Translations under genes and position numbers: made by a program
The notes under the pieces: model-generated
Databases searched by the model: none
Seen by the model: only the letters and a program-made list of their open reading frames with translations
Told to the model about the DNA's origin: nothing
Part shown: in pieces, positions 33,407-55,388 of the stretch
Layout of the letters: each line of letters opens with the position of its first letter
How positions within the stretch are numbered: the first letter of the stretch is position 1
NCBI GenBank assembly: GCA_038064195.1
Contig: JBBTTO010000002.1
Location: 76,981 to 140,980 of the forward strand
Length of the DNA stretch: 64,000 bases
Direction of reading: 5' to 3'
Origin: Patescibacteria group bacterium
Lineage (GTDB): Bacteria; Patescibacteriota; Microgenomatia; Levybacterales; UBA12049

Positions 33407-34051
33407 CTATAAATCTTGGAATTCCTTTGGCATTGCGGGAGCAGGGGAGAGAGTCTGGCCATATTGTTTTTTATATTCAGCCAGTGTCATAGGGAGGAAG
33501 CGCTGTATCTCATAGACGCTTCCTGTATATTTATTTGCATAGATTGCAAATCCTCTCTCAGGATAGAGGTACGCTGACATATAGAATCCCTCGCCGACTT
33601 TATCAAGCGTTTCCTCGGGCTCTCCGTATTGGCTTTCTATACTCGTGAGTTTAGGCAGGGGAGCGGCGTTCGTCTTAGTGGATGTCTTCTCAAAGATCAC
33701 AACGCCGTCTATTGTGCGTATCTCGTCTGTCTTTCCCGGTTCTTTCGAACGGATTGAGTAGATGGTAGTATCCCCGACAGTCCTTTTGGAAAGAATGATA
33801 TTTTGTTGAGTGATCTGTTCATCTGTTGTTTGTCCAATTGAGCTTATTTGAAGCGGGGTAAATTGGTAGGTTTGAGGGGCGCTCGGAGTGGGCGAGGTCC
33901 GTACGGGTGTTGGTGTTGCATCGGAGTTAGGAGTAGTGGACTGTGACGGTGCAAATGTGTTAAAAAGCGCGATTCCAATAATACTAATGGCGATAAGTAT
34001 CAAAATACCTATACCGACAAGTTTTAATTTCATTTGTGCTTGGTTTATCAT
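33407..34051 (-). CDS. Membrane-anchored hypothetical protein (N-terminal TM, Pro/Thr-rich linker, small globular domain)
   Basis: An N-terminal TM helix is followed by a TPNSDATPTPVRTSPTPSAPQ linker. Confidence 0.4.
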   Translation of the reverse strand: MINQAQMKLKLVGIGILILIAISIIGIALFNTFAPSQSTTPNSDATPTPVRTSPTPSAPQTYQFTPLQISSIGQTTDEQITQQNIILSKRTVGDTTIYSIRSKEPGKTDEIRTIDGVVIFEKTSTKTNAAPLPKLTSIESQYGEPEETLDKVGEGFYMSAYLYPERGFAIYANKYTGSVYEIQRFLPMTLAEYKKQYGQTLSPAPAMPKEFQDL

Positions 34052-34881
34052 CTTCCGAGTCCTCTCTGAGCAACGCCCCTATGAAGTGGATGTCTACCGC
34101 CTAAGAATGGATTTGGAGCCCCATTTCCACAGGTGAGTTCACCGACATTTGGATTTAAGTAGAGTGCAATAGTGTCTGCCTGATCCTCATGATAAATGCG
34201 ATCAAAGCCTGGCGCAAAGTTCGGGCATTCACGTCGCGAGTATTTTGTTAGACCACGTTCCCCACTATAAGCAGCCGGGATCTGAAGAAGGTTTGCTTCC
34301 CCCCGCTGGCTACAAAATTGCCAGACATGGGTCAACTCATGAACAAGAATTGCTCCCATAAACTCCCCAACCCATTGGTTACTGAACATAACATCTGTAG
34401 GTCCATATTCCCCACTACCTCCAGGACAAGAAAATTGTTGTGCATAACCGTTGCTCCAGCTGTTTACGAGGGTACCTCTTAGATCCTGCAGGAAGCCAGT
34501 ACAGTCTATTGAGTAAAATTCTTTCCATGCCCACTGCAACTGATTTTGGGGAAGGTTTAAGGTGATGCCCCATCTACTTAAGATAGCACCCCGTATGTCT
34601 CCGGGGGGTACTGGGGCTTGTTGACACGGGCCTGCCGGTCCGCCTCCACCACTTGGTCCGGGGTTTGTACTTGATGGAGCGTTACAGCCTGGGGTTGGTT
34701 GTCCGGGGGCGACCGTCCCAACTGCTGTAGTACAAGTATTACTTGTGGCAGCATGAATATGAGTAGTAAAGGCAGGGAAAAGGCAGATAGAACTTATCAA
34801 AAAGAATAGAGTTGAAGCTTTGCTGGGAAACGATAGGAATATTTTGTTCATAGATACTTTACTGACAATAGCTCGGATCAA
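34048..34881 (-). CDS. Secreted putative zincin-like metallopeptidase (HExxH)
   Basis: A signal peptide, a Gly/Pro-rich linker, HELTH in AILVHELTHVWQ and a downstream Glu are present. Confidence 0.4.
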   Translation of the reverse strand: MIRAIVSKVSMNKIFLSFPSKASTLFFLISSICLFPAFTTHIHAATSNTCTTAVGTVAPGQPTPGCNAPSSTNPGPSGGGGPAGPCQQAPVPPGDIRGAILSRWGITLNLPQNQLQWAWKEFYSIDCTGFLQDLRGTLVNSWSNGYAQQFSCPGGSGEYGPTDVMFSNQWVGEFMGAILVHELTHVWQFCSQRGEANLLQIPAAYSGERGLTKYSRRECPNFAPGFDRIYHEDQADTIALYLNPNVGELTCGNGAPNPFLGGRHPLHRGVAQRGLGR

Positions 34882-35365
34882 GGCTGATTGCTATGCCTGT
34901 CTGTGTCTTAGCATAGAAAAAAACAGGCAGCTTGCAAATCCCGTTATGACTAAATCCCTGTGTCCCCAGCCAAGAAAGAGCATGTTGTTTGGCAGTCGTG
35001 AGGTCGACTGAGTTAAGGCGTATCTGAAAAGCGTCATAATCGTTAATGTAAACGATACTAAAATCTTTTTCGCTATAAACGTATCCAAACTTATCGGCCT
35101 TGTTTATAAGCGTATTTCGAATTGCGCTTTCGGATGCTGTCAGCGGTTTTGCCTGACTTGCTTGTGTCTCAATTTTTTTAAGGAGGGGAACTCGGGAGAG
35201 ACTCGGCCGGCGCTCAATTATGGGGGTGGGAGTAGTAAATATAGTAGTAATCTGCTTAGGGACAGTTCGTTGATTAGATATAAAAAGGACGATCGAGAGC
35301 ACAACATAAAGGACAATGATTATTGTCGAGATTATGATATAGAGTAATTTTTTATGATTTGACAT
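34859..35365 (-). CDS. Membrane-anchored hypothetical protein with architecture like 33407-34051
   Basis: An N-terminal TM helix is followed by a TTPTPII linker. Confidence 0.4.
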   Translation of the reverse strand: MSNHKKLLYIIISTIIIVLYVVLSIVLFISNQRTVPKQITTIFTTPTPIIERRPSLSRVPLLKKIETQASQAKPLTASESAIRNTLINKADKFGYVYSEKDFSIVYINDYDAFQIRLNSVDLTTAKQHALSWLGTQGFSHNGICKLPVFFYAKTQTGIAISLDPSYCQ

Positions 35366-35374
35366 AGGTTTAGC

Positions 35375-38300
35375 TTAGAGCCCCCAAACAATTTTTGCAC
35401 ATTCCCAGTACCCCCAGCCACCGCCCAGGTTTTTTAAGTGATAGTTCACGGCGTTACTCACCTGTGTTTTCCAGTTGACATCGCCCCTGTCATATTGTCC
35501 ATTTAACCCAACCCCTTCACCAAAAGGCGATTCTTGTCCATTGACAAAGCGTGAGCCCATTTGGAAGAGTCCGTAAGCGCTTCCATTCACCGCAACGGAA
35601 ACGTTGTTGGGGTCAAAACCTGGCGCCTCACAGGCAGAGATGCCGATCCAATAGCCAACTCCCGCCGGGTCGAGTTGCTTAAGAAGATCAACCATAGCCT
35701 TGGGCACATTACTCCAATGCCTCCCATTAAAGTCATAGGATATACGTTGAGACTGAGCCAGTTCACAGTCCGGGTCGCCAAAATTATTGCCGTCATGCTG
35801 GCCTCCATTCAAAACATAAGCACCACTACAGTTTGAGGTGTTCGGAGGAGGATTTGAGCCGATGTTTATGGTGCCGGATGTGTCAGAGCTAGAGTCATCG
35901 GAGGTGTTTCCGCCTATTGTATTATCTCCACCAACTCCTCCGATGACGTCCGCGCTTGCCGGTTGACTGGTGAAAGCGAAGTCTTTCTTAATCGGGAGGA
36001 TTTTAATTTGAAAGGTTATGGGAGAAAAAGACGCCTTCCCCGTAGAAATACCGGGCGGATTCGGGTCAGACGATGAGCTGCCTGTGTATCGGTCGGCTAT
36101 TGCTTTGGCGCGATTTGAGAAATTCTGCATATTATCTCCATAATAACTCCCCCAACTCCTCATGGTTGATGCCCAGTTGTCTTTAGCAGCTATATCACCG
36201 GCTACTTCCCGAGCCATTGCGATCGCTCCCAGCTCTTTATCCATGAGGAGAATAGCAATTGCTTGTTGGGCAGTGGCATTGCCCTGGCTTACCTCTGAGG
36301 CTAATTGCCGAACAGATTTGCTTGGAAAGACTGATGGATTTCGAATAAGTCCATTAGAAGCGGCAATTACTCCCTGTCCTACCTGTTGTGTTTTTTGAGC
36401 ATTATTTGAAGTGTTGGCGCCATAAGCTTCATCAAAGTCCTCGCCCAGATGTCCTACTGCTTGAGATACTTGCATACCGTAACCAACCTGCCAACCCCCT
36501 GAGTAAAAGCCGCCTGCGCAGCCGGCATTGATGTCATGGCTTCTGTCCTGACAGTTCCAAAAATAGGGATTATCACCAATACCCTCTATGGCGCCGGTCC
36601 AAATAACAGAAAGAAAAGGATCGACATACCTAGCCCCTCTTGTTTTGCCGATAAGATAGGCTTGATGCCTCGCGACGCGTGCCCCTAAGTCATTAAGATA
36701 ATGTATTGTAGTAGTTGAATACTGGGTATCCGATGTCCCTGGTGAGGGAAGATAGTAAGGAGCCTGTGTGTAGGTTGAAAAGACAATTTTTTGTGTAGAG
36801 GTTCCCCTTACGCCCTTTTCCGGAGTCGGAGTCGGAGTCGGAGTCGGAGTAAGGGTAGGGGTTGGCGTTGTCCCCAGGGTACATTTAGTAAACTCGGCTT
36901 GGGAGGTGTTCTGGTTTTCTTTAACTGACCACTCAACGAGAGTTACTCTACCTTGTCCGTCTTTTGTTAGATGACAGAGCCCTGTCGCACTGACAAAGGC
37001 AGCCTCTGAGGGGATGATGGGGTAGGTGACGCGGATATCGTCTGCCTGTCCATCGTAGGACACGTGGATCTGGTAAGTAATAATGTGTTTTGTCAGTTCG
37101 GCTATCAGTTTCTTGAGCTGCTCAGGGCTATATCCATTCAGTCCAAGTACTCGTGGTGTATCTTTTATCCCAAGAACTGATTGTCCTGATTGAGCAATGA
37201 CGGTTCCTAAGCTGCCCAGGACAGGTCCGCTAGGAGAAGAAGGAGCATCTACTTGATTAGCACACTCTTGGGCTTGCGCATCACCTTGGCAATCCGGTGG
37301 TGGGCTATCTACTGTCGTTTGAGCAGTCTCAAGTTTGATGTTCGCGTCTCCACCCTCGCCTGGCTTAACGAGCAGAACGACGACGAGTAAAATAATCGCA
37401 GCTATCCCCATAGCTGCCAAAACATAAGGATTAGCTAACAGAGGCGCGGCTCGGGCTAAGGTGGCAATACCTCTTGCTGCTTGTGCTGCACCGCGTGCTC
37501 CTTGGGCAGCTCCTCTTACTCCACTACCTCCACCCCCAAGTCTGGGTATGCGTGGGAGCAGCCTACTACCTAGTCGCCCGCCTACTCGTTGGGGAGAGGG
37601 GCGCATCGGCCTTTCGCCTGCAGGTGATGGTTCAGAAGGTGCCCGTGGTGTCTCAGGCGCTTCTCCTTGAGTCGTCCTCTCGCTTGGCCGACGGTCTTCG
37701 CGTAATCGTCTGCGTCGTCTGTCTTCTTCCTCGTCTTCTTCATTATTGCTTTCCTCTTCGATCTCATAGCCTAGTGTGGCTGGGAGGGGCATAGGTCTTA
37801 GAGGTGTTATATGAGAGGTAGTAGACTTAATATCTTGCGCTTTCTGATCGAAAGCAGCGAACTTGCTGTTGGAGTTACCTGCGAGTGCAGGGCGATTATC
37901 TCCTTGAGAAGGAGTATTGGTGGCGTTGGCTTGTATTTCCTGCATGTTTTGTGCTGTCTTTGCATGCTGTTCAAGCTGAGCTGCTTTAGCTTTGATGTCT
38001 TCTGGCGCAATTGGAGCAGGTTGAGTAGGATGCTGGGATGCTTCGAGTTCTTTTTTTGCTTGCTCTGCAAAAACTGGTTGGGCAGGAGTTTCTGGTTGAG
38101 CGCTATGAGAGATAGTGTGCTCCTCCGCTGTCGGGCTTGTTTGGTTGATTTTACTGGTATAGTCAAGGACTATTTGTTGAATCTTGGCATCCTCAGAGAT
38201 AGGGCCATAGAGCCAGATTTCAGAATCGTCGATTGCCGGCCGGTTACGGTTGGTGATGATCGGGTTGAATAAGCGTCTGTCCTTCTCGTCTTTTGTGATT

Positions 38301-38491
38301 GACGCATAGATCTCCTGCCATTGTGGCTCGGTGATTTTTTTTAAGTTAACCCCGTTGAACTCTTTTCTTTTCTTAAGAAGGTTTTTAACCAAGCTCCATG
38401 TCTGTGAGACTTCATAGGCAAAGCCCGGGTTGTTTCGTAGCTCTTCAAACATCTCGTCTGAGGATAGCTTGGTGGTGTAGCTTGTCGCCAT
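35375..38491 (-). CDS. Giant (1038 aa) bitopic membrane protein: cytoplasmic Pro/Arg/Gly-rich N-region, one TM helix, a (TP)n linker and an extracytoplasmic C-terminal lysozyme/lytic-transglycosylase-like domain; candidate VirB1-like peptidoglycan hydrolase of the T4SS-like locus
   Basis: The TM helix is LLANPYVLAAMGIAAIILLVVVLLV and the linker is TPTPTLTPTPTPTPTP. The C-terminus SAYGLFQM...VNGQESPFGEG resembles SLT/lysozyme-like GLxQ motifs. It sits immediately upstream of virB4. Confidence 0.45.
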   Translation of the reverse strand: MATSYTTKLSSDEMFEELRNNPGFAYEVSQTWSLVKNLLKKRKEFNGVNLKKITEPQWQEIYASITKDEKDRRLFNPIITNRNRPAIDDSEIWLYGPISEDAKIQQIVLDYTSKINQTSPTAEEHTISHSAQPETPAQPVFAEQAKKELEASQHPTQPAPIAPEDIKAKAAQLEQHAKTAQNMQEIQANATNTPSQGDNRPALAGNSNSKFAAFDQKAQDIKSTTSHITPLRPMPLPATLGYEIEEESNNEEDEEEDRRRRRLREDRRPSERTTQGEAPETPRAPSEPSPAGERPMRPSPQRVGGRLGSRLLPRIPRLGGGGSGVRGAAQGARGAAQAARGIATLARAAPLLANPYVLAAMGIAAIILLVVVLLVKPGEGGDANIKLETAQTTVDSPPPDCQGDAQAQECANQVDAPSSPSGPVLGSLGTVIAQSGQSVLGIKDTPRVLGLNGYSPEQLKKLIAELTKHIITYQIHVSYDGQADDIRVTYPIIPSEAAFVSATGLCHLTKDGQGRVTLVEWSVKENQNTSQAEFTKCTLGTTPTPTLTPTPTPTPTPEKGVRGTSTQKIVFSTYTQAPYYLPSPGTSDTQYSTTTIHYLNDLGARVARHQAYLIGKTRGARYVDPFLSVIWTGAIEGIGDNPYFWNCQDRSHDINAGCAGGFYSGGWQVGYGMQVSQAVGHLGEDFDEAYGANTSNNAQKTQQVGQGVIAASNGLIRNPSVFPSKSVRQLASEVSQGNATAQQAIAILLMDKELGAIAMAREVAGDIAAKDNWASTMRSWGSYYGDNMQNFSNRAKAIADRYTGSSSSDPNPPGISTGKASFSPITFQIKILPIKKDFAFTSQPASADVIGGVGGDNTIGGNTSDDSSSDTSGTINIGSNPPPNTSNCSGAYVLNGGQHDGNNFGDPDCELAQSQRISYDFNGRHWSNVPKAMVDLLKQLDPAGVGYWIGISACEAPGFDPNNVSVAVNGSAYGLFQMGSRFVNGQESPFGEGVGLNGQYDRGDVNWKTQVSNAVNYHLKNLGGGWGYWECAKIVWGL
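36821..36850. repeat. Hexanucleotide microsatellite (ggagtc)4-5 encoding the (TP)n linker
   Basis: The repeat is read directly from the sequence. It stays in-frame because the unit is 6 bp. Confidence 0.8.
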
Positions 38492-38504
38492 AGTAGTATC
38501 CTAT

Positions 38505-40505: not shown

Positions 40506-40506
40506 A

Positions 40507-42570: not shown

Positions 42571-42999
42571 GTGAAAAGTCGCGCTCCTTTAGATTCAGAA
42601 GGAAGTCTTTTTAACTTGACTTTTATTGACAAATCAGGGCACAATGAGAGCATGGACCAGATTACGCCTGAATATAAAGAACAGGTTCAGGGGCAGATTT
42701 TGAGCATTATGAGCGCGGCGCTTGAGGCAAATACTCTCAAGACAGATCAAACGCCTGTCATTGCCGGTTTTGTGAGAGAAAAAATTGAAGCAGTCCAAAC
42801 CCACGTTCAGTTAGTTGAATTCCTTGCAGAGCTTGCGCAAAAGTGGCCGATTTTTGCATCGCTTGGTAATATGGAGATGGGTCGCGCAATTGAGGCACAC
42901 AAGGGTGAATTCACCCATGGTGTCATAGATAAAGTCAAGTCAGGCGATATAGATGGAGCTCTTAAAATGGCTCAGGGGTTGACTCCCCATGCACAATAA
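42571..42999 (+). CDS. Hypothetical protein
   Basis: A 142-aa ORF whose end overlaps the next ORF by 11 nt. Confidence 0.35.
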   Translation: MKSRAPLDSEGSLFNLTFIDKSGHNESMDQITPEYKEQVQGQILSIMSAALEANTLKTDQTPVIAGFVREKIEAVQTHVQLVEFLAELAQKWPIFASLGNMEMGRAIEAHKGEFTHGVIDKVKSGDIDGALKMAQGLTPHAQ

Positions 43000-45040
43000 T
43001 ATGGCTAGCACAACAGATCAACTCTATGGTGAACAGGGTAAAGAGACCGTGGCACGGGCGGCGTTTTCTGGTTCGGGTCGGGTTCATAGTCCAAGCGAGC
43101 GTATGGCACAGGATCTGCGCCGACGGCGGGAGGCCCAAGAACAGCCATCACACATCGTAGCAGATCTTGAGATCAAGCCTGTTTCCTCATCCCAGGTAGC
43201 CGGAGCTATTGAAAAAACAATTGGAGGGAAGTGGGTGGATGTCAAAGATTCTTCAGGTGCTATAGTTGGCAGAAAAAAAGAGCGTATTTCAGGCTCAGTC
43301 GAAGAGACGCGTTTTAAGGATGCAAGCAAAGCAGCTGAGTTCGTCCAGGAATTCCTCAAAAATAACTATGCCAATGTCCTCACCAGGCGTGATCGGGTAA
43401 CGCCTGTCTACAAAGCAAAAGATCCGGTTACCGGTAGGGAGACGCCTGTATTCCCTGACCAATTCATCGAGGCCTACAGAAAAAAAACCTTAGCAGCAGT
43501 AGAGGTGATCTGGCCGGATGCCAAGAAAGCCATGTCTGGCATGAGTGATCAGGCCAAGGAAAAAATGATGGATCGTATGCTCTCAGATCCTGCTTTTGCC
43601 AAGCATGTGCAGGCAAAGCTGCAGGAGGTCGTCGAGAGTACCCAGGAGGGGAAAGCTCTCCCACAAGAGCTTATTGATCGAGTGAGTAGTGCTAAGCTTG
43701 ATCACGATACTAAGGCGAAAGAGGTTGAGTGGACAGAGGCTGATTTGGAGGCAAAAAAAGAGGAATTCAAAAAGGAGTTCACAGATAAAGGTTCTGGGTC
43801 AATGGGGAGAGAGTATGATGCCATGCCAAGTATGGCATCATTGGAAGCAGATCTTGTTTCACATGACGACGATGTGCGAAAAAAGATGCGTGAGTTGGCC
43901 GATCTGAATAGGCAGTACGCGACAGCAGATAGGGCTAAGAATGCAGCTGAGGTAGCTAGGATTAGTCCATTGATAGGTACGAAAGAGGGGGAGATTGACG
44001 ACGCTAAGGATAGGAAGAAAGAAATAGAGCATAAGATTGCGCGTAGAAAAGAGATTGAGGATCGTCGAGCAGCTCTTGAGACAAGCGTTAGAGAGCTTGA
44101 GCGGAGTCTAGCCAAGAAGCAAATTGAGAGGGATCAGGCTCAAAATACGTATTATCTGACTCTTGCCAGTAAAAATGAGGCAGAGGAAGATCTTGCCAGG
44201 GGTGAAAAATCTTTTGTGTCGAAGCTGAACAATGTTACGACGGAGGCTGTGCGGGAATACTTGAAGGGTGAGATAGGTAACTATGAACAGACACGGGACA
44301 CGATCATCACAGAGCACGGGGATGATGCTCTGGTTAAAGGCCTGCAGGATCGCTGGAATAAGAAAGGTAAGCGTAATGAGTTCAACAAAGACACCATCAA
44401 TAGTGACTACAAGCTCTTTATCAATCAAGGGCCTAACGCTATTGTTCGTGCGACTTTGAGGGAAGGCGGGATGAGTGATGCTGAGATTGATGCCAAGTTG
44501 GCATCATACCCTGACTTCAAAAAGCGGGCTGAGTCAGAGGTCATAGAGCGTCTTTTGACCAGAAGACTCCAGACCGGGAAGATCTCTGAGGGGGAGGCGC
44601 GGCGTATTGTAGATATGCCAGGCAGCGAGGATGTTATTACGACCGCGCTTGAGAACAGAGCTAAATACGATGGGACGTATGAGGAATTAAAAAAGAAGGG
44701 CTTACTGGGTGGTGAGTTCATGCGTAAGCTACGTGCCTTACCCCACAATCGTATCGTGCAAATCCTCATGCTGATTTTCGGACTGGGAGGGTTGTTAGCT
44801 GTCGATGCTCTGGGTGGATTTGGTGTGGCAACTGCCGCAGGGGCAAAAATTGCAACAGGTGCTGGCTACGCAGCACATATAGGAGGAGTAGCAGCTGATA
44901 AGGCAGCACCTTTTGTGGGTGATGCTCTCGATAAGGCCGGAGCAGCAGTGAGTTATGCAGGTGATAAAGGCGGAGATGCTCTTAGCTATGCCGGAGATAA
45001 GCTAAGTGCGGGAGCCGACGCAGCAGATAAATATCGGTAA
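42989..45040 (+). CDS. Large coiled-coil protein with a C-terminal membrane/Gly-Ala-rich repetitive tail
   Basis: A charged heptad-rich body ends in ILMLIFGLGGLLAV and GDKGGDALSYAGDK repeats. Confidence 0.45.
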   Translation: MHNNMASTTDQLYGEQGKETVARAAFSGSGRVHSPSERMAQDLRRRREAQEQPSHIVADLEIKPVSSSQVAGAIEKTIGGKWVDVKDSSGAIVGRKKERISGSVEETRFKDASKAAEFVQEFLKNNYANVLTRRDRVTPVYKAKDPVTGRETPVFPDQFIEAYRKKTLAAVEVIWPDAKKAMSGMSDQAKEKMMDRMLSDPAFAKHVQAKLQEVVESTQEGKALPQELIDRVSSAKLDHDTKAKEVEWTEADLEAKKEEFKKEFTDKGSGSMGREYDAMPSMASLEADLVSHDDDVRKKMRELADLNRQYATADRAKNAAEVARISPLIGTKEGEIDDAKDRKKEIEHKIARRKEIEDRRAALETSVRELERSLAKKQIERDQAQNTYYLTLASKNEAEEDLARGEKSFVSKLNNVTTEAVREYLKGEIGNYEQTRDTIITEHGDDALVKGLQDRWNKKGKRNEFNKDTINSDYKLFINQGPNAIVRATLREGGMSDAEIDAKLASYPDFKKRAESEVIERLLTRRLQTGKISEGEARRIVDMPGSEDVITTALENRAKYDGTYEELKKKGLLGGEFMRKLRALPHNRIVQILMLIFGLGGLLAVDALGGFGVATAAGAKIATGAGYAAHIGGVAADKAAPFVGDALDKAGAAVSYAGDKGGDALSYAGDKLSAGADAADKYR

Positions 45041-45079: not shown

Positions 45080-45427
45080 TTAAGAAGTTGGTGCGGGGCA
45101 GGTGTCAAAGCCGAAATTCTGGATACATTTGATGCCGATGATATTGGTGATGAAATAGAAAAGCACTATTGATGTCAGGACAATGATGAGGCCGATGAGA
45201 GCATAGGTCAGGATTTGGCGGGCTTCCTGGACTTGTTTGGTATCACCGCGTGAGACGATAAGTCTGATAGCCGCGTAAAGAATCAACGCTAGAGCTACTA
45301 TTCCGACAAAATAAAACGCCCAGTGGATGATTACTTGTAGAAAAGGCCCAATACACTTAAGTTGTGGTATAACACCGATTTTTTTACCAGTTGAATCAAA
45401 AGCATCTGCTGCACATGACCAGTTCAT
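45080..45427 (-). CDS. Small pilin-like protein (two hydrophobic helices separated by a short polar GDTKQVQEAR loop; VirB2/TrbC-like topology)
   Basis: It shares the TM - G(G)D/NxxKVxxAR - TM module with the three neighbouring paralogs. Confidence 0.45.
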   Translation of the reverse strand: MNWSCAADAFDSTGKKIGVIPQLKCIGPFLQVIIHWAFYFVGIVALALILYAAIRLIVSRGDTKQVQEARQILTYALIGLIIVLTSIVLFYFITNIIGIKCIQNFGFDTCPAPTS

Positions 45428-45473
45428 ATATTTACGTTAGCAAAGAAAGTAAGCAAGCACAATAGAGAAGAAG

Positions 45474-45884
45474 CTATTGAAGGAGTGAGGGCAAGGTAAA
45501 TGATCCAATGTCATTCCCGGTAAGGAGTTTAAAGACAAAGTTGATGACAAAGAATGATAAGAAGACGACTACGAGTCCGATAATTGCACCAACAATAGTG
45601 TTGCGAGCAGCCTCAACCTTCGTCTTATCACCACCAGCTGTAATCCATTTAAATCCACCAATAATGAGGAAAATTAACGCTGCAGCTGCACCGAGAAGAA
45701 GTAAAAGATTGAGGATTCTACTGAGCAGAGTTTGAGGGTCTGCTGAACTCGTTTTACAGAGACTATCAAATCCAGCCCCAGCAGGGCATAATTTTACAGT
45801 ACTGTCTGCAAAAGCGAGAGTGGCTACTGAAAGATAAAGAGAGGTTGCGGATACAGTAGCGATTAATTTTTGGGCAGATTTCAT
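45474..45884 (-). CDS. Pilin-like secreted protein (signal peptide, Cys pair, TM-GGDKTKVEAAR-TM module)
   Basis: IIGGFKWITAGGDKTKVEAARNTIVGAIIGLVVV is nearly identical to the motif in 45984-46361. Confidence 0.5.
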   Translation of the reverse strand: MKSAQKLIATVSATSLYLSVATLAFADSTVKLCPAGAGFDSLCKTSSADPQTLLSRILNLLLLLGAAAALIFLIIGGFKWITAGGDKTKVEAARNTIVGAIIGLVVVFLSFFVINFVFKLLTGNDIGSFTLPSLLQ

Positions 45885-45983
45885 AAATGTATTTAGTAAC
45901 TCTCTATCTATTTAGTCATATCTATTTTTACTTGTCAAGACCCATTTTCAAGCTGGAATTGTAAGAATATGGCTGAGGTATTA

Positions 45984-46361
45984 TTAACAAGGACTAGTAT
46001 TAGGTGATGAACAGTCCGGAGGATTTACGAGCATCGGGAAATTAAGAGAGCCTCCTGTGATCAGCTGGCCGACGAAGCCAATAATAAGGAAAGATAAAAG
46101 GGCTAATACTAGACCGACTATTGCATAGGTGAGTGTCCCACGCGCTGATTGAACTTTGGTCTTGTCACCGCCGGCTGTAATCCACTTGATGCCAGAGATG
46201 ATAATAAAGATGAGTGCTAAAACGAAGATAAAGAATAGGGCTACCTGAACTGCACGTTCTGCAATAATAATAAATATAGGTAGTCCACCTGTAGGTATCC
46301 CCTCGGGAACAGCTATTTTCTGGTTATCAATTGCGAGAGCGAGTAAGTGCTGCATAAGCAT
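45984..46361 (-). CDS. Pilin-like protein paralog (TM-GGDKTKVQSAR-TM)
   Basis: IISGIKWITAGGDKTKVQSARGTLTYAIVGLVLALL is present. Confidence 0.5.
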   Translation of the reverse strand: MLMQHLLALAIDNQKIAVPEGIPTGGLPIFIIIAERAVQVALFFIFVLALIFIIISGIKWITAGGDKTKVQSARGTLTYAIVGLVLALLSFLIIGFVGQLITGGSLNFPMLVNPPDCSSPNTSPC

Positions 46362-46373
46362 AGTGTATAGGAA

Positions 46374-46751
46374 TTAGTGCTCAGTGTGTAGTAGGCGCAT
46401 TTTTCGGACCAGTGAATTGAGCATGCGCAGTACTTCCTCAAGTAATGGAGTTATCTTTTCAAACTGTTCTTTAGATATATAGGTAAGCTCGTGACAAATG
46501 ATCAGCTGTGTCTCTAGCTCTAAAGCTGACCCATATGCTATCGCGTAAAATTGCGCGAACTCCCTAGATGATTTTCGGCCATATCCTTCGGCAATATTTG
46601 AGGGTATAGATACTGCAGCCCGTCGCATTTGCGAGACTAGACTATACATTTCATGATTGGGAAACCTTGATGTGATTTGGTAGATAGCCTTTACAAGCAA
46701 TATAGATTTTTGCCATACAATAAGATCCTTATAATTATGAATCTCACTCAT
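46374..46751 (-). CDS. Four-helix-bundle protein (family often encoded in 23S rRNA intervening sequences; TIGR02436-like)
   Basis: The 125-aa protein contains LIVWQKS...SIPSNIAEGYGR...ELETQLII, matching this family. Confidence 0.65.
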   Translation of the reverse strand: MSEIHNYKDLIVWQKSILLVKAIYQITSRFPNHEMYSLVSQMRRAAVSIPSNIAEGYGRKSSREFAQFYAIAYGSALELETQLIICHELTYISKEQFEKITPLLEEVLRMLNSLVRKMRLLHTEH

Positions 46752-46788
46752 CTTTGTGGTTTCTACACACTAATAACTACACACTTGC

Positions 46789-47958
46789 CTACTTAGTCAG
46801 TCCCGGGAGGTTGAGGAGATCAACTCCTATTACTTCCAGAATAATGATTGAGAGAACCAAAAACAAGAGGCCGACAAAGACAGAGGTGAGGCGTTCCCTG
46901 GCCTCTTTGACTTTCTCAGGATTGCCTTGAGAGGTCATGAGTTGATAGCCGCTGCGGATGATGAGAAGGAGGGCTATCCCGCCTGAGATACTCAGGAGGA
47001 TTGCAAAAAGCTGCCCGATAAAGCTAAAGGAGTCTGTATTAAGAGGTCCTATCGCACTCCAGATAGAAGTACAACCTTCGTTGGTGTTAAGTGTTTGAGC
47101 GCAAGGAGGAGGTGGGGGAAGAGGAGTTGGCGTAGGAAGACTCTTAGCTTGGTTAATCCAGATAGTAATTGGCTCAAGATATTGGTCATTGTCTCCATAA
47201 AGCACAATAGAGGTTGTCCCCTTACTAAAATCCTTTGGAAGAGTAAATATTACGCTACCACATGCATCCGTGTCGCATTTGGCTGTAGCGATTGCAGGTT
47301 CACCAAGAGCAGTTAAAACCAGATATTCTTTACTCGATGCGCCAGTAAGATGGATGCCGATGTCTTCTCCTGGTTGGGCAGGGTTATCTACCGCATTCGT
47401 CCTCCCATTCGTATTAAAAGCATCGATCATTTTATGATCAGTTGAGCCGCCACTCCCTTTGGTGACCACCGTAAATTTGTCTGCGGCAGGCGTGTCAGTG
47501 CCTTCCGAAGGTATTTTGTACACGCAGACGTGTAAGGTATTACTTCCATCATTTATATTATCCCCAATCTCTTGAGTACTTACCTGCCCTGAAAATGTAT
47601 TATTTGAACAAGAGGTATTGGTGAAATGCTGCGATGTTTTGTCGGGATCCATAATACATGTTCCATCGTCTGCTATACCAACTGTTTCTTGTGCAATAAT
47701 TATAGGTGCGGTGGTCTCGCAGGTCATGTTAGGGCCAAGAAGATTAATTACGTATGCCTCCGACTTTGGAATATTACCTAGCGAGATGTTGATAGGGTTG
47801 GGGTAGGTTACCGTCTGGTCGACTGAGAGGTTGCCCTGCATGCCTCCAACTGCTTCAGCAGTAAAGACCACCAGTGGATAAGGAATGATTATGCCTACTA
47901 AAAAGATGAGGGAATAGGAAAAACTTAGCAGGGATTTTTTCATACTTGTAATTATCAT
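46789..47958 (-). CDS. Pilin-like protein with a large N-terminal extracellular domain and Pro-rich linker (candidate tip or adhesin pilin)
   Basis: A signal peptide and ~280-aa N-domain are followed by a PTPTPLPPPPP linker and the shared C-terminal TM-QGNPEKVKEAR-TM module. Confidence 0.45.
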   Translation of the reverse strand: MIITSMKKSLLSFSYSLIFLVGIIIPYPLVVFTAEAVGGMQGNLSVDQTVTYPNPINISLGNIPKSEAYVINLLGPNMTCETTAPIIIAQETVGIADDGTCIMDPDKTSQHFTNTSCSNNTFSGQVSTQEIGDNINDGSNTLHVCVYKIPSEGTDTPAADKFTVVTKGSGGSTDHKMIDAFNTNGRTNAVDNPAQPGEDIGIHLTGASSKEYLVLTALGEPAIATAKCDTDACGSVIFTLPKDFSKGTTSIVLYGDNDQYLEPITIWINQAKSLPTPTPLPPPPPCAQTLNTNEGCTSIWSAIGPLNTDSFSFIGQLFAILLSISGGIALLLIIRSGYQLMTSQGNPEKVKEARERLTSVFVGLLFLVLSIIILEVIGVDLLNLPGLTK

Positions 47959-47976
47959 ACGAGGTTAGAGGATTGT

Positions 47977-49344: not shown

Positions 49345-49389
49345 AGTTAAAATTCGAATATCAAAGCACGAAATCCGAAATAAATCCTA

Positions 49390-49755
49390 ATGACCCAAGA
49401 ACAAATTACAAAACTTTATGATTTAGAAGAACGAACATTTGTGTTTGCGAAAGACACGAGATCGTTTGTTAAAAAGCTCCCCAAAACAGTAGGTAACATC
49501 GAAGATGGCTCACAACTCATCCGTTCTTCTGGCTCGGTAGGCGCTAATTATATCGAGGCAAATGAAGCATTTAGCAAAAAGGACTTTCTAATGAGAACAA
49601 AGATTTGTAGAAAAGAAGCAAAGGAGAGCAGGTTTTGGCTACGTCTGGTAGATACAAAAGACGATCCTCTACTTGAAAAGGAAAGAATAAGGTTAATAGC
49701 TGAGGCAACAGAATTGATGAATATTTTCGGTGCGATTATTAGAAAATCTGAATAA
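49390..49755 (+). CDS. Four-helix-bundle protein (23S IVS protein family), second copy
   Basis: The 121-aa protein contains GSVGANYIEANEAFSKKDF, typical of the family. Confidence 0.65.
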   Translation: MTQEQITKLYDLEERTFVFAKDTRSFVKKLPKTVGNIEDGSQLIRSSGSVGANYIEANEAFSKKDFLMRTKICRKEAKESRFWLRLVDTKDDPLLEKERIRLIAEATELMNIFGAIIRKSE

Positions 49756-49939
49756 CTATTAGTTTTGAGAATTTATATTTTGAATTTGTTTCGAGTTTCG
49801 ATATTCGTATTTCGGATTTAAACCTCGACTTATCAGCGTAGTTCTGCGTAATATTCTGTAAGGTTCCGCGATTTGCCTTGTAAGGTATCTAAAAGGTTGT
49901 TATCAAGTGAAAAAAGGGGAATACAGGTAGACTGTCCCC

Positions 49940-52900
49940 ATGAATGAACGTTTGACTTCGGAGGCTGCTACCACGTATGCTAAAGATGGAGAATTGTTTA
50001 TGGCCTCAGAAAACACCAAAGACCAAGAGAATCAGCCCTGGGATCCAATCGAGACTCCTTTAACTATAGCTAACGTCATGGATATCCCGGTTAAGACGAG
50101 AGAACAGCTTGAGGCAAAAGCTGCCTGGAGTCAGTTATATGGCGGGAAGATGCCAAATGATCCTACCGAGCGGCAGATGCTAGGGGATTCGATTCGAGAT
50201 GGGAAGCTCCCTGATGCCTCAATGCGCTCGGCAGGCAGACAGGACTCCGCAACCCAGCGTGAGCGCGAGGCACGTCAAAATACTGATCGGGATCCACAAC
50301 GAGTCCAAGAAGGGAAAAGAACAAAAAGCAATAGAAAAGAGCAACTGCACCGCCCTGAGGATGACGGCCCACAAATTACTCGGGATATGACCGAGGAGCA
50401 ACAACAGGCCGAAATTGCCCGTTGGCAAGCCAGCATGGACACTCTACTGAGGCAGGAGATGGCCAATCCCAACAAAGATAGGACATATTTTGAAGTTATG
50501 GGGGATCGGTTCAACCAGCGAAAAAGTTGGTCAGAGGACCCAAGTACGGCAGATTCGCTTGAGCGGGAGTTCCAAGCGCAAAACAAACGGTTCAGTGATC
50601 GAGAGGCAGCAATTGAGTTCCTTGTGAAGCAAGGCTTTCGCCGAGAGGAAATTACTGATGAGCAGGTGGATTTGGCTATCGACCAAATCCAGGAATCCCT
50701 CACTATCCCCAGCAGAATGGAGAGGATAAAGGAGCAGATTCTCAAAACGGATGACCTGAAAGTAGCCCGTAATCTGTTTGAGAGGCTGCGTAACTATGTG
50801 CGAGAGATCAATGATAGTAGTCAGGCGCCCGGTAGTAAGCTCCAGCTTAAAGATCAAACACGGACAACGTTGCAAAAAATAGCCAATCTTGGAGAAAGCG
50901 ATCTTGATACCCTCGAAAAAGTTAGGGCGCAGACGCAACGTATTCTGGCTGATGATCCGAAAGCAGGCTTAAATATCAAAAATTTCTTCTTTGAGGCTGA
51001 GACGGTTGATACAAAGAGGCGTGGTAGTAGAGGGGTACAAATCCGCTCGCTTGAGGAATTAGTCGAACTCATCGCTGAGTCCCAGGGAGGCAAGTTCTCT
51101 GCGGGCGGGGAATTTGAGATCATGAATGAGCGGGGCGAGATCCAGCTGCAGAATCTCGTTGCCTGGATTCGTCAAAGGATTTTAACCCTCCATGAAAATG
51201 AGCCAGATGATCCGATCAACACCTTTACCAATATCGCAGTTCCAACTTTTTTCCGTCAAATTAGTCTTAATGAAATGTTTTTGACACCAACCTACTTCCA
51301 GAAGAGAAAAATGGTAATTGAAGGTTCAGAAGAAAAGGGCAACCTTTCTATGCGTCAGGAAAGTGTTGATGATCAGCAGTATGAGAATTTTAAGATGAAC
51401 CTTCTCTATGAGTCATGGCTTTTTGGTGTCTCGCATAGTAATAATGCTGAGTATCGAGCAGTACGTGGGCAGGAAGAGCCTCTTTTTAACAAAATCGCCT
51501 CGCTCTATACCAAAAATCATTTCACCAAAGATCGCAATCGTTTCTTAAATATCTTCAGCCTTGCTAAAGTTGATAAAAGTGAATTTGATGCTGTAGGTAA
51601 AAAAGAAGAACAGGGGAGTGTTGGTAAGGCGATACAGAGAGGAGTCTTGGCTTACTATCACCTGTGGGAGTTAGTAGCTGAGAATAAAGTCAAAAGAGGT
51701 AGAGATGGTAAGCCTCAGAAAGGCAAGGATGGTAAGCCTATTTATGATCTAAGTCAAGGTGATATCACCAAAATAGAAAATAACAATTTCTATTCTACCT
51801 TGGGAGAGGATGGGACGAAGTATTTCTATCATTCAATTGTAGATCAACTCTTAACAGCCAAAGGCAAAATTGAGCTTGACTTTAAAGAGGCTTTAGGCGC
51901 TCTTGCAAGTGATCTGACACGTGGCGAGAGTGAGAAAGATCTCACGGATCTAGAGCTAGTCTTTAAGCATAAGAGAGATAAGTTCGATGCATTTATGACA
52001 ACACAGTTGGATATGAAGCCTGAGGATATAGCTAAATATGAGAGTAGCCCACGTGATTTCGCTACAGTTGTGATGGACAAAGTTTGGGCAATCAAACATA
52101 AAGACTTAAATATCTTTGATGATGTCAATAAGGAGCAGCGGATTATTAGCTTAGTCAATCATGCTGTTTCCTCAGCTATTGGAAGAAAAGAGGGGCTAGG
52201 TGTTCAGGACACAGAATACGCCGGAGAGTGGGCCTATACGATGCGAGACTGGACAGGGATAGCAGCACGTAATGATACCAGTGGTATTGGCTTTGATGCC
52301 TGGTCTAAGCTTATCAATTTCCAAGATTACAGAGGTCGTCAGGGGCGAGGAAGAAGTGGGGCTGGCAATATGTACAATTTTCCTGGATTTAAGCGTTTGG
52401 GGGCAACACTGCTTGATGGGTTGTTGGTACGTATTGATGGGGACGAGCGGAAAGATGAGAACAAGAAGTCTCTGATTAGCGTTTTGGAAGAATCCAATCG
52501 TAACAATACCAGGCTGAAGACTTTTGATTTTGATGGTGAGGCGATGAGACAGTTCTCGGCCAATCATATTAACAATGCCTTTAAAGTCTTTCAATTTATT
52601 CTTGAGAAGATGGAGACCAAGATGAACTCAATTGTCTCAATTGATAGAGCAGGAAGACCGGTCTTCAATCATGAAGCAGCTTTGCAGATCATGGATGGTC
52701 TTTGGCATGACCTCAGATACGCTTTTGATCAGCCCCGCTTTAATTTTGACACCACGGTTATTGAAGGCTGGGAAAATAGAACTGTCTATGATGCTAAAGG
52801 GAAGCCTGTTTTTGATGATGAGGGGAAGCTAGTCATGGAGCGTGTCAAGACCAATCAGTCGATGCGCCATCATATGTTCGGCGATGAAATGATAGAGCTG

Positions 52901-53299
52901 GGGCATAAAATGCATCATCGTGATATTACGAAGAATGCTTGGGGAAGGCAAATGGGGCGTTCGGCTTTTGCCTATTTGGTTGCTAAGGAAATATTTGCCC
53001 ATCGTCAATTTAATAGTGGGTATGTGAAATGGCCGGTTGAGCAGATAGAGTTGATTCAAGCTTTCTTCCACCATCAAGCATTAGAATTTGGTCAAAAAGG
53101 TGAACAGGATTATGATATGAAGATCTTTGCGGAGTTTTTCGATCATCATGAGTGGAAAGAGATTCTAGGTTTGGCTAAGTCGAGCTATCTGAGGATGTAT
53201 ACCGGAGAATATGCTGCGCAAGGAGCGGGTCTGGTTGGGGGAATGATAGGCAAGACAATTGGTGAGACTATCAAGCAGGTTGCAACGGTAGCTAAGTAG
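49940..53299 (+). CDS. Giant (1119 aa) hypothetical soluble protein with no P-loop and no recognisable catalytic motif; candidate T4SS-associated or effector protein
   Basis: A long uninterrupted ORF with coding-like composition, convergent on the VirB6-like gene. Confidence 0.45.
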   Translation: MNERLTSEAATTYAKDGELFMASENTKDQENQPWDPIETPLTIANVMDIPVKTREQLEAKAAWSQLYGGKMPNDPTERQMLGDSIRDGKLPDASMRSAGRQDSATQREREARQNTDRDPQRVQEGKRTKSNRKEQLHRPEDDGPQITRDMTEEQQQAEIARWQASMDTLLRQEMANPNKDRTYFEVMGDRFNQRKSWSEDPSTADSLEREFQAQNKRFSDREAAIEFLVKQGFRREEITDEQVDLAIDQIQESLTIPSRMERIKEQILKTDDLKVARNLFERLRNYVREINDSSQAPGSKLQLKDQTRTTLQKIANLGESDLDTLEKVRAQTQRILADDPKAGLNIKNFFFEAETVDTKRRGSRGVQIRSLEELVELIAESQGGKFSAGGEFEIMNERGEIQLQNLVAWIRQRILTLHENEPDDPINTFTNIAVPTFFRQISLNEMFLTPTYFQKRKMVIEGSEEKGNLSMRQESVDDQQYENFKMNLLYESWLFGVSHSNNAEYRAVRGQEEPLFNKIASLYTKNHFTKDRNRFLNIFSLAKVDKSEFDAVGKKEEQGSVGKAIQRGVLAYYHLWELVAENKVKRGRDGKPQKGKDGKPIYDLSQGDITKIENNNFYSTLGEDGTKYFYHSIVDQLLTAKGKIELDFKEALGALASDLTRGESEKDLTDLELVFKHKRDKFDAFMTTQLDMKPEDIAKYESSPRDFATVVMDKVWAIKHKDLNIFDDVNKEQRIISLVNHAVSSAIGRKEGLGVQDTEYAGEWAYTMRDWTGIAARNDTSGIGFDAWSKLINFQDYRGRQGRGRSGAGNMYNFPGFKRLGATLLDGLLVRIDGDERKDENKKSLISVLEESNRNNTRLKTFDFDGEAMRQFSANHINNAFKVFQFILEKMETKMNSIVSIDRAGRPVFNHEAALQIMDGLWHDLRYAFDQPRFNFDTTVIEGWENRTVYDAKGKPVFDDEGKLVMERVKTNQSMRHHMFGDEMIELGHKMHHRDITKNAWGRQMGRSAFAYLVAKEIFAHRQFNSGYVKWPVEQIELIQAFFHHQALEFGQKGEQDYDMKIFAEFFDHHEWKEILGLAKSSYLRMYTGEYAAQGAGLVGGMIGKTIGETIKQVATVAK

Positions 53300-53303
53300 T
53301 TAG

Positions 53304-55388
53304 TTAATGGCCTGCTACTGGTTTGACCTCATTCGGACTAAATGATCCAACAATTGGTTTAATAATTCTCCTTCTAAATCCCCCGCCATCATTAACTCCA
53401 CCGATTAAGAATTTACGAGCAAAACCGATACTTTGATTCGGGCCTTGAGGTCTAAAGGCACGCCCAAGCCCCCAACGGGTAGGCCCGCTGGCTAGTTGTT
53501 TGCCGGCCAAAAATCCGCCAGCGATAACGCCACCGACAGGGCCCGGCTTGGCATTAAAGGCTGCACGTACCCAGTTGAGCACCTCAGGAGTGATGAGGAT
53601 GAGGCCAAAAGCAACCAATAACCCGAAGTTATCAAAGGTATTGGTATTGACTATAAGTGGAGGGAGAAAGCTTGTCCCCTGGGGGTTATTAGAAGCAGTA
53701 TTGCTGGCCATAATCCGTGCCAGAACGAAGACAAAGATAGTTGCCGGGAAGACCATCAGATGTGCCAGCAGTGCTCGTATCCACCTCGAAAAGCTATATG
53801 GACTGCCCGGGAAAAGGCCGATCACTATCATCAGCGGACCAATAACTGTGTAGATAACGACATATACCAGCGCTCTTAAGAGGTTAAACCAGACCTTCAA
53901 AAGTGCAATAAATATCGCGGCGAGGATTATGAGGATTGTAAAGACAGTTGCTACCCATTTGATAGTAGACTGTAGAATATTCTTTGCGCAGTTAGCATAA
54001 TTCCAGAATCTGAGAGTAAAACCAGGGCAGTCAGATGTATCAAGTCCTAATGCTCCTGTTATCGTACGGGCAATAACATCCCCAAGCGTACTTGCTACAC
54101 TCGTTGATAGCCCTACGATACCATCGTGGTCTGTGATACCTCCCCCCCAGGACAGAGCCCCATTTAGGAAGACTAGGGGATTACTATTTAAGTGTAGTGT
54201 AAGTTGCTGGCGCAAAGAGTTATTGTCGCTATACTGATCAATGATTGAGGATAGCGATACACCAGAAGTAGAATACTTAACAAAGTCTGCATAAAGATGA
54301 TCTGCGATAGCTTCATCCGCTACCTTTTGACTGTCAACTAATTGGGCGAGAGAATTGTCAGAGATTGCCAAAAAGATCTCCCTGAGCGATCCACTACAGT
54401 TGGGGATATTTTTACAGATTGCTATTTTGGTAATGTCAAGTTTATTCTTACATTCAGGTATATTGTTACATCCAGTTTCATAGTCATCGACATCCTTAAG
54501 AGTTGCCTGAGATGCTGCAGTGAAACGACCCAAGTCGGCACCTTTGTATTGTGTTAAGATAGCATCCTCTTTGGCTTTCACATCTCCTACATTCCCAGCG
54601 CTTATGCCATCTCGATATTCATAAAGGATAAGATCATTTTTAAGATCACTAGGAGCAGTTTTATCTGTCGTAAAAGTATTAATAACGACATAGCTAAAAA
54701 ACCACATCGTGTCGATGAGGAAGCCGACTATAGCGTAGGAAAAAGTGATCATGATGACCGCCACGACGATTTTTGGAATTTGATTTTGGATGCTCATGAC
54801 AGTGCGCGGATCGATATGCACTCGTATCATGATGGCAAAGCCGATAACGACAAAAAGAATAGTCAGCAGAAGGTAGGCGAGGTTACGCATGATCAGCCAG
54901 GTAGACTGGAGTGATGACAGACCTTTAAAGCCTTGATTGTCAGGATTATCTTGGGCATAGATGTGCTGTCCTATCCCAAAGTTCTGAGCCAGATATCTGA
55001 CTGATTCGCTAGTCGAAGCAGGCTTAGTGTAAAGTGAGCCGATCATCGTACTCGTCGTCCCGAGTATCCCGCCGATTTGCGGGAGTCCGTTTTGTTGAGG
55101 GGCGTAGGTGAGTTTGTGATTGATCGGATCGAGGACGACACAGCCTTTTTGCGGATCTACAGGATCAATTCCGACTAACTGGCAAATAATTGCTGAGCTG
55201 ATATCAATGAGTAGGGACTGTGCCCGGGTGTGGTCGTCAGTCGCTAAGGGTGTAGTAGGGGGGGCGGGGCTGTAAGCATCTGATTGGGCATGACTAAGGG
55301 AGGTGGACTGAATAGTGAGGCCAGTAACGACAAGTACTAGAAGGAAAAAACGAACAATATAATAACTAAAGCGTCGGGGCAGAGACAT
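53304..55388 (-). CDS. Polytopic membrane protein with a signal peptide and large periplasmic loops; possible VirB6/TrbL-like T4SS channel component
   Basis: A signal peptide, at least 8 TM helices in clusters and a Gly-rich C-terminus are present. It lies within the T4SS-like locus. Confidence 0.35.
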   Translation of the reverse strand: MSLPRRFSYYIVRFFLLVLVVTGLTIQSTSLSHAQSDAYSPAPPTTPLATDDHTRAQSLLIDISSAIICQLVGIDPVDPQKGCVVLDPINHKLTYAPQQNGLPQIGGILGTTSTMIGSLYTKPASTSESVRYLAQNFGIGQHIYAQDNPDNQGFKGLSSLQSTWLIMRNLAYLLLTILFVVIGFAIMIRVHIDPRTVMSIQNQIPKIVVAVIMITFSYAIVGFLIDTMWFFSYVVINTFTTDKTAPSDLKNDLILYEYRDGISAGNVGDVKAKEDAILTQYKGADLGRFTAASQATLKDVDDYETGCNNIPECKNKLDITKIAICKNIPNCSGSLREIFLAISDNSLAQLVDSQKVADEAIADHLYADFVKYSTSGVSLSSIIDQYSDNNSLRQQLTLHLNSNPLVFLNGALSWGGGITDHDGIVGLSTSVASTLGDVIARTITGALGLDTSDCPGFTLRFWNYANCAKNILQSTIKWVATVFTILIILAAIFIALLKVWFNLLRALVYVVIYTVIGPLMIVIGLFPGSPYSFSRWIRALLAHLMVFPATIFVFVLARIMASNTASNNPQGTSFLPPLIVNTNTFDNFGLLVAFGLILITPEVLNWVRAAFNAKPGPVGGVIAGGFLAGKQLASGPTRWGLGRAFRPQGPNQSIGFARKFLIGGVNDGGGFRRRIIKPIVGSFSPNEVKPVAGH

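Follow-up and report, generated by a model that had tools for sequence, protein, structure and literature searches.

A chromosomal type IV secretion system locus, probably of the Patescibacteria clade, beside the replication origin of a Microgenomatia genome

The window analysed here is a 64,000-nucleotide (nt) stretch of DNA (contig JBBTTO010000002.1 of assembly GCA_038064195.1, positions 76,981 to 140,980) from the ~1.08-Mb groundwater genome of a Microgenomatia member of the Patescibacteria, a group that also goes by the name of candidate phyla radiation (CPR). In the ~22-kb interval leading from dnaN to tRNA-Ser(UGA) it carries 18 gene-sized open reading frames (ORFs) in five transcription units, which constitute a genuine, complete and well-conserved type IV secretion system (T4SS) locus. 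Taken together, the evidence makes it likely that this is a vertically inherited chromosomal T4SS of the Patescibacteria clade, descended from the conjugation machinery of monoderm bacteria (MPF-FATA). A preliminary description of the same DNA had proposed a minimal, non-conjugative chromosomal CPR T4SS, probably serving host interaction or uptake, and this proposal is supported by the presence of a true VirB4 with T4SS neighbours and no mobility genes in the window. All the gene-sized ORFs named there, including the giants of 683 and 1119 residues, exist where they had been placed.

A VirB4 operon with PrgI- and TrsD-type partners

The core of the locus is transcription unit A, a seven-gene operon extending on the minus strand from 42377 to 33407 with overlaps or gaps of 1-13 nt. 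It encodes, in order, a PrgI fusion, a TrsD-type protein, VirB4, a 1038-residue protein, a 168-residue protein, an HExxH protein and a 214-residue protein (Table 1). The ATPase matches the NCBIfam VirB4 model NF045971 (conju_CD1110) at model positions 179-734 with 395 bits against a cut-off of 325, contains the Pfam P-loop_TraG domain (3.4e-28) and retains both the Walker A (GKSGSGKS) and the Walker B (VLVLDEAW) motifs, in agreement with its earlier identification. Compared with full-length VirB4 models it is truncated: since the match begins only at position 179, the usual N-terminal ~180 residues are missing from this protein and would be supplied separately by the TrsD-type protein encoded just upstream. 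The latter aligns with positions 97-233 of NF045975, which belong to the N-terminal region of the VirB4 model (1.5e-8), and with the TrsD model NF041427 (6e-4), both below whole-protein cut-offs, and its gene has its stop codon 1 nt ahead of the ATG of virB4.

For comparison, one genome per species was scanned and the closest 80 loci were retained, with neighbours counted within ±10 kb of virB4. In 77 of these a TrsD gene stands directly upstream of virB4 on the same strand, and the split between the two is therefore not a frameshift. On the strength of the E-value and this invariant adjacency to virB4, the 219-residue product is by sequence a TrsD protein.

The first gene of the operon specifies a 404-residue protein that the preliminary description had read as a two-helix VirB3-like protein joined to a coiled coil and an Ig-like domain, a reading that holds in each part: it scores 30.8 bits with the PrgI family (PF12666; gathering score 27) and has two predicted transmembrane (TM) helices, followed by a ~340-residue extension made up of a Glu/Gln/Leu-rich coiled coil and an Ig-like domain with a match to CarboxypepD_reg (PF13620, 2.5e-6) below the gathering score. 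Full-length PrgI homologues adjoin TrsD in 73 of the 80 loci. At the other end of the locus, unit E consists of a gene for a 694-residue multi-pass protein, which had likewise been taken for a VirB6-like polytopic protein and which matches TrbL/VirB6 (PF04610) with 30.3 bits against 25.9; it shows about seven hydrophobic segments and a large central hydrophilic domain, and its homologues occur in 18 loci. Thus, of the families that had been listed for profile searches on the ORFs, VirB2, VirB3, VirB4 and VirB6 were found and VirB8 was not, and the 219-residue protein proved to be of the TrsD type.

A pilin array with a pilin-displayed outer domain

Unit C, on the minus strand, encodes a 389-residue protein, a 125-residue protein of the 23S_rRNA_IVP family and then small pilins of 125, 136 and 115 residues. 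The small pilins match T4SS_pilin (PF18895) with 28.0, 48.7 and 28.5 bits, respectively, all above the gathering score of 26.6. The 389-residue protein begins with a signal or TM segment, continues with a ~280-residue Cys-rich outer domain and a Pro linker, and ends in a VirB2-like pilin domain (32.6 bits at residues 312-376). The four pilin domains are mutually 21-32% identical and share a conserved inter-helix loop of the form G(G/D)xxKVxxAR. Hence, of the four tandem pilin genes proposed earlier, three stand, the one at 46374-46751 is instead a 23S_rRNA_IVP gene (5.9e-43), and it is the 389-residue protein that contributes a fourth pilin domain, at its C-terminus. The pilin part of this protein is conserved at the far end of the arrays in 34 loci, and we infer that it is a candidate adhesin-bearing minor or tip pilin.

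The two IVP-family proteins encoded in the locus are unrelated to each other by BLASTP, and the one interrupting the array is also weakly bAvd-like. Similar IVP genes adjoin PrgI in two of the related loci (L060 and L066). A diversity-generating retroelement around the bAvd-like gene was considered and is not supported, there being neither a reverse transcriptase nor a template/variable repeat pair.

Wall-hydrolase candidates downstream of VirB4

The gene following virB4 encodes the 1038-residue protein, with a cytoplasmic N-terminal part of ~356 residues, a TM helix at 357-375, an outer mid-domain at ~560-810 and a C-terminal domain at ~880-1033. As a single sequence, this C-terminal domain has no match in Pfam or NCBIfam. 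Twenty sequences of the domain, taken from related loci, were therefore aligned, and the profile built from them (A1) displays a 'CES' motif whose Glu is invariant, after which come 'GAWGLYQMG' (GxxGLxQM) and 'DRGDVNW..Q..NA'. Searched against PDB, the profile matches only C-type lysozymes (best E-value 0.0018), with the invariant Glu on the position of the catalytic Glu35, and hhalign against hen egg-white lysozyme returns the same motif alignment (E-value 0.0087, low probability). The position equivalent to lysozyme Asp52 is Ala or Gly, as in lytic transglycosylases. Pfam SLT is matched weakly by seven of the 20 members and Lys by two, and against NCBIfam the domain family gave one marginal match, to the aggregation-promoting factor C-terminal domain (0.02). 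These matches lend weak but consistent support to a lysozyme/SLT-like C-terminus, as had been suggested for this bitopic protein of more than 1000 residues. The mid-domain gave no match in Pfam or PDB, so that a second SLT-like domain there, considered because of an E...GYGMQV motif, found no support.

Next in the operon is the gene for the 168-residue single-pass protein, whose outer domain has two conserved Cys and no match to a known fold. This family is tandemly duplicated downstream of the hydrolase gene in four of the related loci (L021, L022, L026 and L027). A word-indexed homologue search yielded 4-15 matches for the 168-residue protein and four for the 1038-residue protein, the latter search being swamped by low-complexity words.

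The secreted HExxH protein is a putative gluzincin-like metallopeptidase: the HELxH motif is invariant in nine homologues and comes with a Glu 23 residues downstream and with ED/N/P/H positions. In relatives its domain is fused to Amidase_2 (4.6e-18), Peptidase_M23 (7.7e-19) or a GDSL hydrolase, which points to cell-wall remodelling, and the enzyme thus probably acts on the cell wall. The operon closes with the gene for the 214-residue protein, and 13 loci have a homologue in this place; its family has no Pfam, NCBIfam or PDB match, and one locus (L015) carries three copies of it.

Conservation beside the replication origin

The VirB4 proteins of the 80 loci are 52-89% identical to the window copy. 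Most of the source genomes are labelled as CPR metagenome-assembled genomes (Levybacteria, Microgenomates, Gottesmanbacteria), and the rest bear uninformative or evidently wrong automatic labels. The neighbourhood of virB4 includes TrsD in 77 loci, PrgI in 73, dnaN in 60, dnaA in 57 and yidC in 51; 46-48 loci have the pilins, 27 have the regulator described below, and 23-29 have the C-terminal domain of the 1038-residue protein. The recurring order is VirB6, the 1119-residue protein (g1119), regulator, pilin array, a variable slot, PrgI, TrsD, VirB4, hydrolase, the 168-residue protein (often duplicated), HExxH protein, 214-residue protein, dnaN and dnaA. The GC-skew profile of the window has its minimum near dnaA/dnaN, which therefore marks the oriC region.

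Across 56 loci, the identity of VirB4 to the window copy tracks that of DnaA with a Spearman coefficient of 0.90, to be compared with 0.91 for DnaA versus DnaN; VirB4, at 52-85% identity as against 34-80% for DnaA, is the more conserved of the two. The conserved synteny and this co-divergence together indicate that the locus is strongly constrained, has long belonged to the chromosome with vertical inheritance, and is not an island. The scan for mobility genes took in the 39 larger ORFs of the window (18 in the locus and 21 outside it), and none of them encodes VirD4/TcpA, a relaxase, VirB11 or an integrase, as the preliminary description had noted for the locus itself. Further, no direct or att-like repeats of at least 30 nt flank the locus.

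Relationship to known systems

Both the architecture and its interpretation match earlier publications (Wang et al. 2023, PMC10633639; Quiñonero-Coronel et al. 2025, PMC12102498), and the present locus is an ordinary further copy. By Tn-seq, the Saccharibacterium Southlakia epibionticum ML1 requires an origin-proximal T4SS, SEML1_0006-0019, which resembles Gram-positive conjugative systems, includes an essential pilin array, is without a recognisable coupling protein or relaxase and is essential for epibiotic growth (PMC10633639). A survey of 3,035 patescibacterial genomes recovered 2,425 VirB4s that group monophyletically, as a Patescibacteria clade inside MPF-FATA; their most frequent partner is TrsD, PrgI-type VirB3 is common, dnaA and dnaN are frequent neighbours, Microgenomatia abound in VirB2-like pilin arrays (25% identity on average) and VirB8 is essentially undetected (PMC12102498).

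The locus shares with this clade, prototyped by SEML1_0006-0019, VirB4 with a separate TrsD, a PrgI-type VirB3, VirB6, a divergent PF18895 pilin array, candidate lysozyme and peptidase genes right downstream of virB4, the absence of a relaxase or coupling protein nearby, and the position beside dnaA/dnaN. Its putative HExxH peptidase and candidate lysozyme-like genes have a parallel in S. epibionticum, where homologues of a peptidase and a lysozyme encoded immediately downstream of virB4 are essential (PMC12102498). Whereas the survey found VirB6 to be scarce in Microgenomatia and 22.6% of their VirB3 homologues to lie near virB4 (PMC12102498), this Levybacteria-like copy has linked VirB3-like and VirB6-like genes, with PrgI adjacent in the 73 relatives mentioned above. 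It differs further by the ~340-residue PrgI extension, the pilin with a ~280-residue outer domain, and the conserved regulator and ~1000-residue orphan family.

Among Gram-positive MPF-FATA systems (pCF10 Prg/Pcf, pIP501 Tra, pGO1/pSK41 Trs and the CTn CD1110 family of C. difficile), the succession PrgI-PrgJ-PrgK-PrgL is mirrored by the order of VirB3-like protein, VirB4, large single-pass candidate wall hydrolase and small single-pass membrane protein seen here. Also shared are TrsD, as in pGO1, a VirB4 above the CD1110-family cut-off and the lack of an outer-membrane core. Unlike these systems, the locus has no relaxase, coupling protein, oriT or PrgB-type surface adhesin and no recognised VirB8-fold protein, and it possesses VirB2-like pilins, which Gram-positive systems lack. 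Moreover, the latter reside on plasmids or integrative and conjugative elements (ICEs), whereas the locus is chromosomal, vertically inherited and origin-adjacent. With H. pylori ComB, archaeal Ced, Bordetella Ptl and Brucella VirB it has in common a VirB4-powered apparatus operating independently of a relaxase or type IV coupling protein (T4CP); however, those systems have a diderm VirB7-10 core or CedA partners, neither of which is present here, and both the pilin array and the location near the origin are peculiar to Patescibacteria.

Table 1. Features of the locus and of its boundaries, in window coordinates
Feature	Position	Strand	Basis or remark
dnaA	30654-32036		Pfam Bac_DnaA; on the origin side of the left boundary
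dnaN, left boundary	32291..33403	+	Pfam DNA_pol3_beta x3
214-aa single-pass membrane protein	33407..34051	-	last operon gene; TM helix at the N-terminus, then Pro/Thr linker and outer domain of ~140 aa
Secreted HExxH gluzincin-like putative metallopeptidase	34048..34881	-	277 aa as ORF, 267 aa by gene callers
168-aa single-pass membrane protein	34859..35365	-	conserved ~110-aa two-Cys outer domain; at PrgL (VirB8) position
1038-aa single-pass membrane protein, candidate VirB1/PrgK analogue	35375..38491	-	TM prediction; family profile of C-terminal domain (A1)
VirB4 ATPase, 666 aa	38505..40505	-	NF045971, P-loop_TraG
TrsD-type protein, 219 aa	40507..41166	-	NF045975, NF041427; stand-alone homologue of VirB4 N-terminal domain
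PrgI/VirB3-like fusion, 404 aa	41163..42377	-	PF12666, PF13620, TM prediction; first operon gene
Variable slot, unit B: 142-aa protein (115 aa by gene callers) and 683-aa protein	42571..45040	+	no family match
Three tandem VirB2-like pilin genes (115, 136, 125 aa)	45080..46361	-	PF18895 T4SS_pilin
23S_rRNA_IVP four-helix-bundle protein, 125 aa	46374..46751	-	PF05635; inside the pilin array, not a pilin
389-aa pilin fusion	46789..47958	-	PF18895, TM prediction
Regulator, unit D: AAA_16-like NTPase with OmpR-type winged helix	47977..49344	+	Trans_reg_C 6.9e-18
Second 23S_rRNA_IVP-family gene, unit D	49390..49755	+	PF05635 3.3e-11
1119-aa soluble protein (g1119), orphan family, unit D	49940..53299	+	between regulator and virB6
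Extended VirB6/TrbL-like multi-pass membrane protein, 694 aa, unit E	53304..55388	-	PF04610
tRNA-Ser(UGA), right boundary	55500..55589	-	ARAGORN, Rfam

Weighing the alternatives

Several observations weigh against the reading of the locus as a complete Patescibacteria-clade T4SS engaged in host interaction. The muramidase assignment of the 1038-residue protein rests on weak profile matches, and the AlphaFold model of its residues 441-1038, computed from a 4-sequence alignment, is unusable (mean pLDDT 38). The VirB8/NTF2 fold was not found in the 168-residue protein, the candidate for a PrgL/TraM/TcpC-type component, nor was any VirB8-like component recognised elsewhere in the locus. A promoter and terminator scan gave counts equal to those in shuffled sequence. 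The mobility-gene scan spans the 64 kb of the window, or ~6% of the genome, and a distant coupling protein or relaxase is possible; indeed, most patescibacterial VirD4-like/T4CP genes lie far from virB4 (PMC12102498). Finally, to assign a host-interaction role to this Microgenomatia lineage is to extrapolate from Saccharibacteria. Against this background, we consider the chances that the machine delivers proteins outward or manipulates a host to be about even.

The foremost alternative is that the same machine, akin to ComB or Ced, imports DNA or other molecules of the host and so feeds an auxotrophic bacterium. A VirB4 system with pilins and wall hydrolases, and with neither T4CP nor relaxase in the window, would fit such a function, as H. 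pylori ComB and archaeal Ced also work without these two components; the VirB4 has a generic match to the CedB model (2e-16); and reviews, which call the role of the patescibacterial T4SS 'completely unknown', raise effector delivery or uptake as speculation (PMC11665869, PMC12857230). However, the CedB match amounts to 59.7 bits, far under the cut-off of 700, that to CedD to 29 bits against 600, and the locus proteins include no CedA, no ComB6-10 partner families, no ComB outer-membrane core and no ComEC. Deletion of comEC in S. epibionticum abolishes transformation and leaves viability intact, so that the essentiality of the T4SS there does not stem from ComEC-linked uptake (PMC12857230). 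Nothing in the sequence indicates a direction of transport, and on balance we regard import as rather unlikely.

Classical relaxase-driven conjugation by this locus is unlikely, and it is improbable that the locus belongs to a working conjugation system with its relaxase, oriT and coupling protein elsewhere in the genome. The limited span of the scan and the remoteness of T4CP genes noted above speak for such a system, as does the fact that the VirB4 is closest to conjugative MPF-FATA models, namely those of the CD1110 family. Against it, relaxases were found in just 103 of the 3,035 surveyed genomes (PMC12102498), the locus co-diverges with dnaA at a fixed position beside oriC, and the distant t4cp of S. 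epibionticum is dispensable while its T4SS is essential (PMC12102498).

A decayed ICE or genomic island that has lost its mobility genes, to which the tRNA gene at one edge and the slightly raised GC content of parts of the locus (0.47-0.50) might point, is effectively refuted: there is no integrase and there are no direct repeats, the ORFs are intact throughout, the higher GC falls on low-complexity coding sequence rich in Pro/Ala/Gly, and the same site beside dnaN is occupied in 60 of the 80 species-level relatives, with divergence tracking that of DnaA. The denial of an ICE in the preliminary description, and the retention of gene order beside dnaN/dnaA that its comparison with CPR genomes was to probe, are both borne out by these data. 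Last, a HerA/FtsK-type ATPase amid housekeeping genes, suggested by a secondary Pfam match to DUF87/HerA (2e-11) and named as a refuting possibility at the outset, is already refuted by the VirB4 equivalog score above its curated cut-off and by adjacent genes of T4SS families, namely PrgI, TrsD, VirB6 (TrbL) and four VirB2-like pilin (T4SS_pilin) domains.

Regulator, orphan family and variable slot

Unit D opens with a gene for a regulator that combines an AAA_16-like NTPase with an OmpR-type winged helix, and this gene lies beside the pilin array in 27 loci. The ORF as annotated begins with TTG at 47977, a mere 18 bp from the divergent pilin gene; the true start is probably M16, giving 440 residues, as judged from gene callers and homologues. 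A paralogue, 22% identical over its full length (E-value 5e-25), is encoded 30 kb away at 17227-18537 (-).

The orphan protein g1119, also in unit D, belongs to a family of ~1000-residue proteins that has 215 representatives in a set of 1.84 billion proteins clustered at 50%, with a conserved core at residues ~360-1110. The family occupies the same regulator-virB6 interval in five related loci (L016, L021, L025, L040 and L057), and its profile has no Pfam or PDB match beyond coiled-coil noise.

The slot between the pilin array and PrgI is of a different nature. Here it holds the 142-residue protein (g142) and the 683-residue protein (g683), the latter consisting of a charged coiled coil, a C-terminal TM helix and a Gly/Ala-rich tail; the two are present in only three of the 80 loci and have no match in Pfam, NCBIfam or PHROGs. 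More generally, PHROGs gave no phage relation for the locus proteins of unknown family. In loci L002, L010, L049, L053 and L060 the slot contains unrelated giant or tail-anchored proteins of 404 to 2528 residues, and in many slot proteins, though not in every one, a Gly/Ala-rich C-terminus serves as the tail anchor. This place upstream of PrgI thus looks like a hypervariable cargo or adaptor position.

Neighbouring genes in the window

Six tRNA genes, two of them for tRNA-Arg and four for tRNA-Ser species that differ in anticodon, are clustered at 55500-59405, interspersed with a NUDIX gene and a P-type ATPase gene. Beyond them is a 903-residue protein at 59416-62127 (-), largely disordered and charged with a Gly/Ala-rich hydrophobic C-terminal tail, and it is adjoined by a 108-residue ORF at 62129-62455 (-). 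Neither has a Pfam match, and PHROGs gave none for the 903-residue protein. The latter has the same architecture as g683; g1119 shares with it solely the Gly/Ala-rich hydrophobic C-terminal tail. On the origin side, envelope genes lie just upstream of yidC, namely those for an 885-residue DUF4012 protein at 24447-27104 (-) and, likewise near yidC and the origin, a Wzy_C/O-antigen-ligase-like membrane protein at 27149-28756 (-). Most of the 21 larger ORFs outside the locus are clear housekeeping genes, encoding tRNA synthetases, MurD, RuvB, glycolytic enzymes, YidC, the P-type ATPase and others.

A model of the machine and its meaning

By analogy with the MPF-FATA systems of pCF10 and pIP501, VirB4, with TrsD as its missing N-terminal domain, would dock on a membrane platform of PrgI and VirB6 and power assembly. 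The 1038-residue muramidase-like protein and the HExxH peptidase could breach the cell's own peptidoglycan and possibly that of the host. The pilins, if they behave like those of VirB2 pili, would polymerise into a short pilus or conduit, on which the 389-residue fusion may display its adhesive outer domain, with the regulator controlling the pilin array. The assembled machine may mediate a contact-dependent exchange with the host cell on which this small-genome bacterium depends. As to what is exchanged, g1119 and the slot giants (g683 here) might form a substrate-recruiting platform that replaces the coupling protein, or might be secreted, host-specific effectors; we put this forward tentatively, as a possibility we would not call probable.

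A large part of bacterial diversity belongs to the CPR or Patescibacteria, which seem to live at the expense of other cells. An origin-proximal T4SS is essential in the one CPR species tested, and the present locus brings no new principle to that picture. Rather, it is a clean and complete Microgenomatia example with a sharper parts list, and its additions are modest: linked VirB3-like and VirB6-like genes in a lineage where surveys under-detected them, the large, conserved PrgI extension, a pilin displaying a large domain, a conserved, locus-specific regulator and g1119, a candidate wall-hydrolase pair right after virB4, and a 168-residue candidate that is not VirB8-like. Its main residual value lies in the orphan g1119 and the hypervariable giant slot, which are candidates for the missing substrate or receptor functions. 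Were these proteins indeed a recruiting platform or effectors, they would provide the first handle on the transport substrates of patescibacterial T4SSs.

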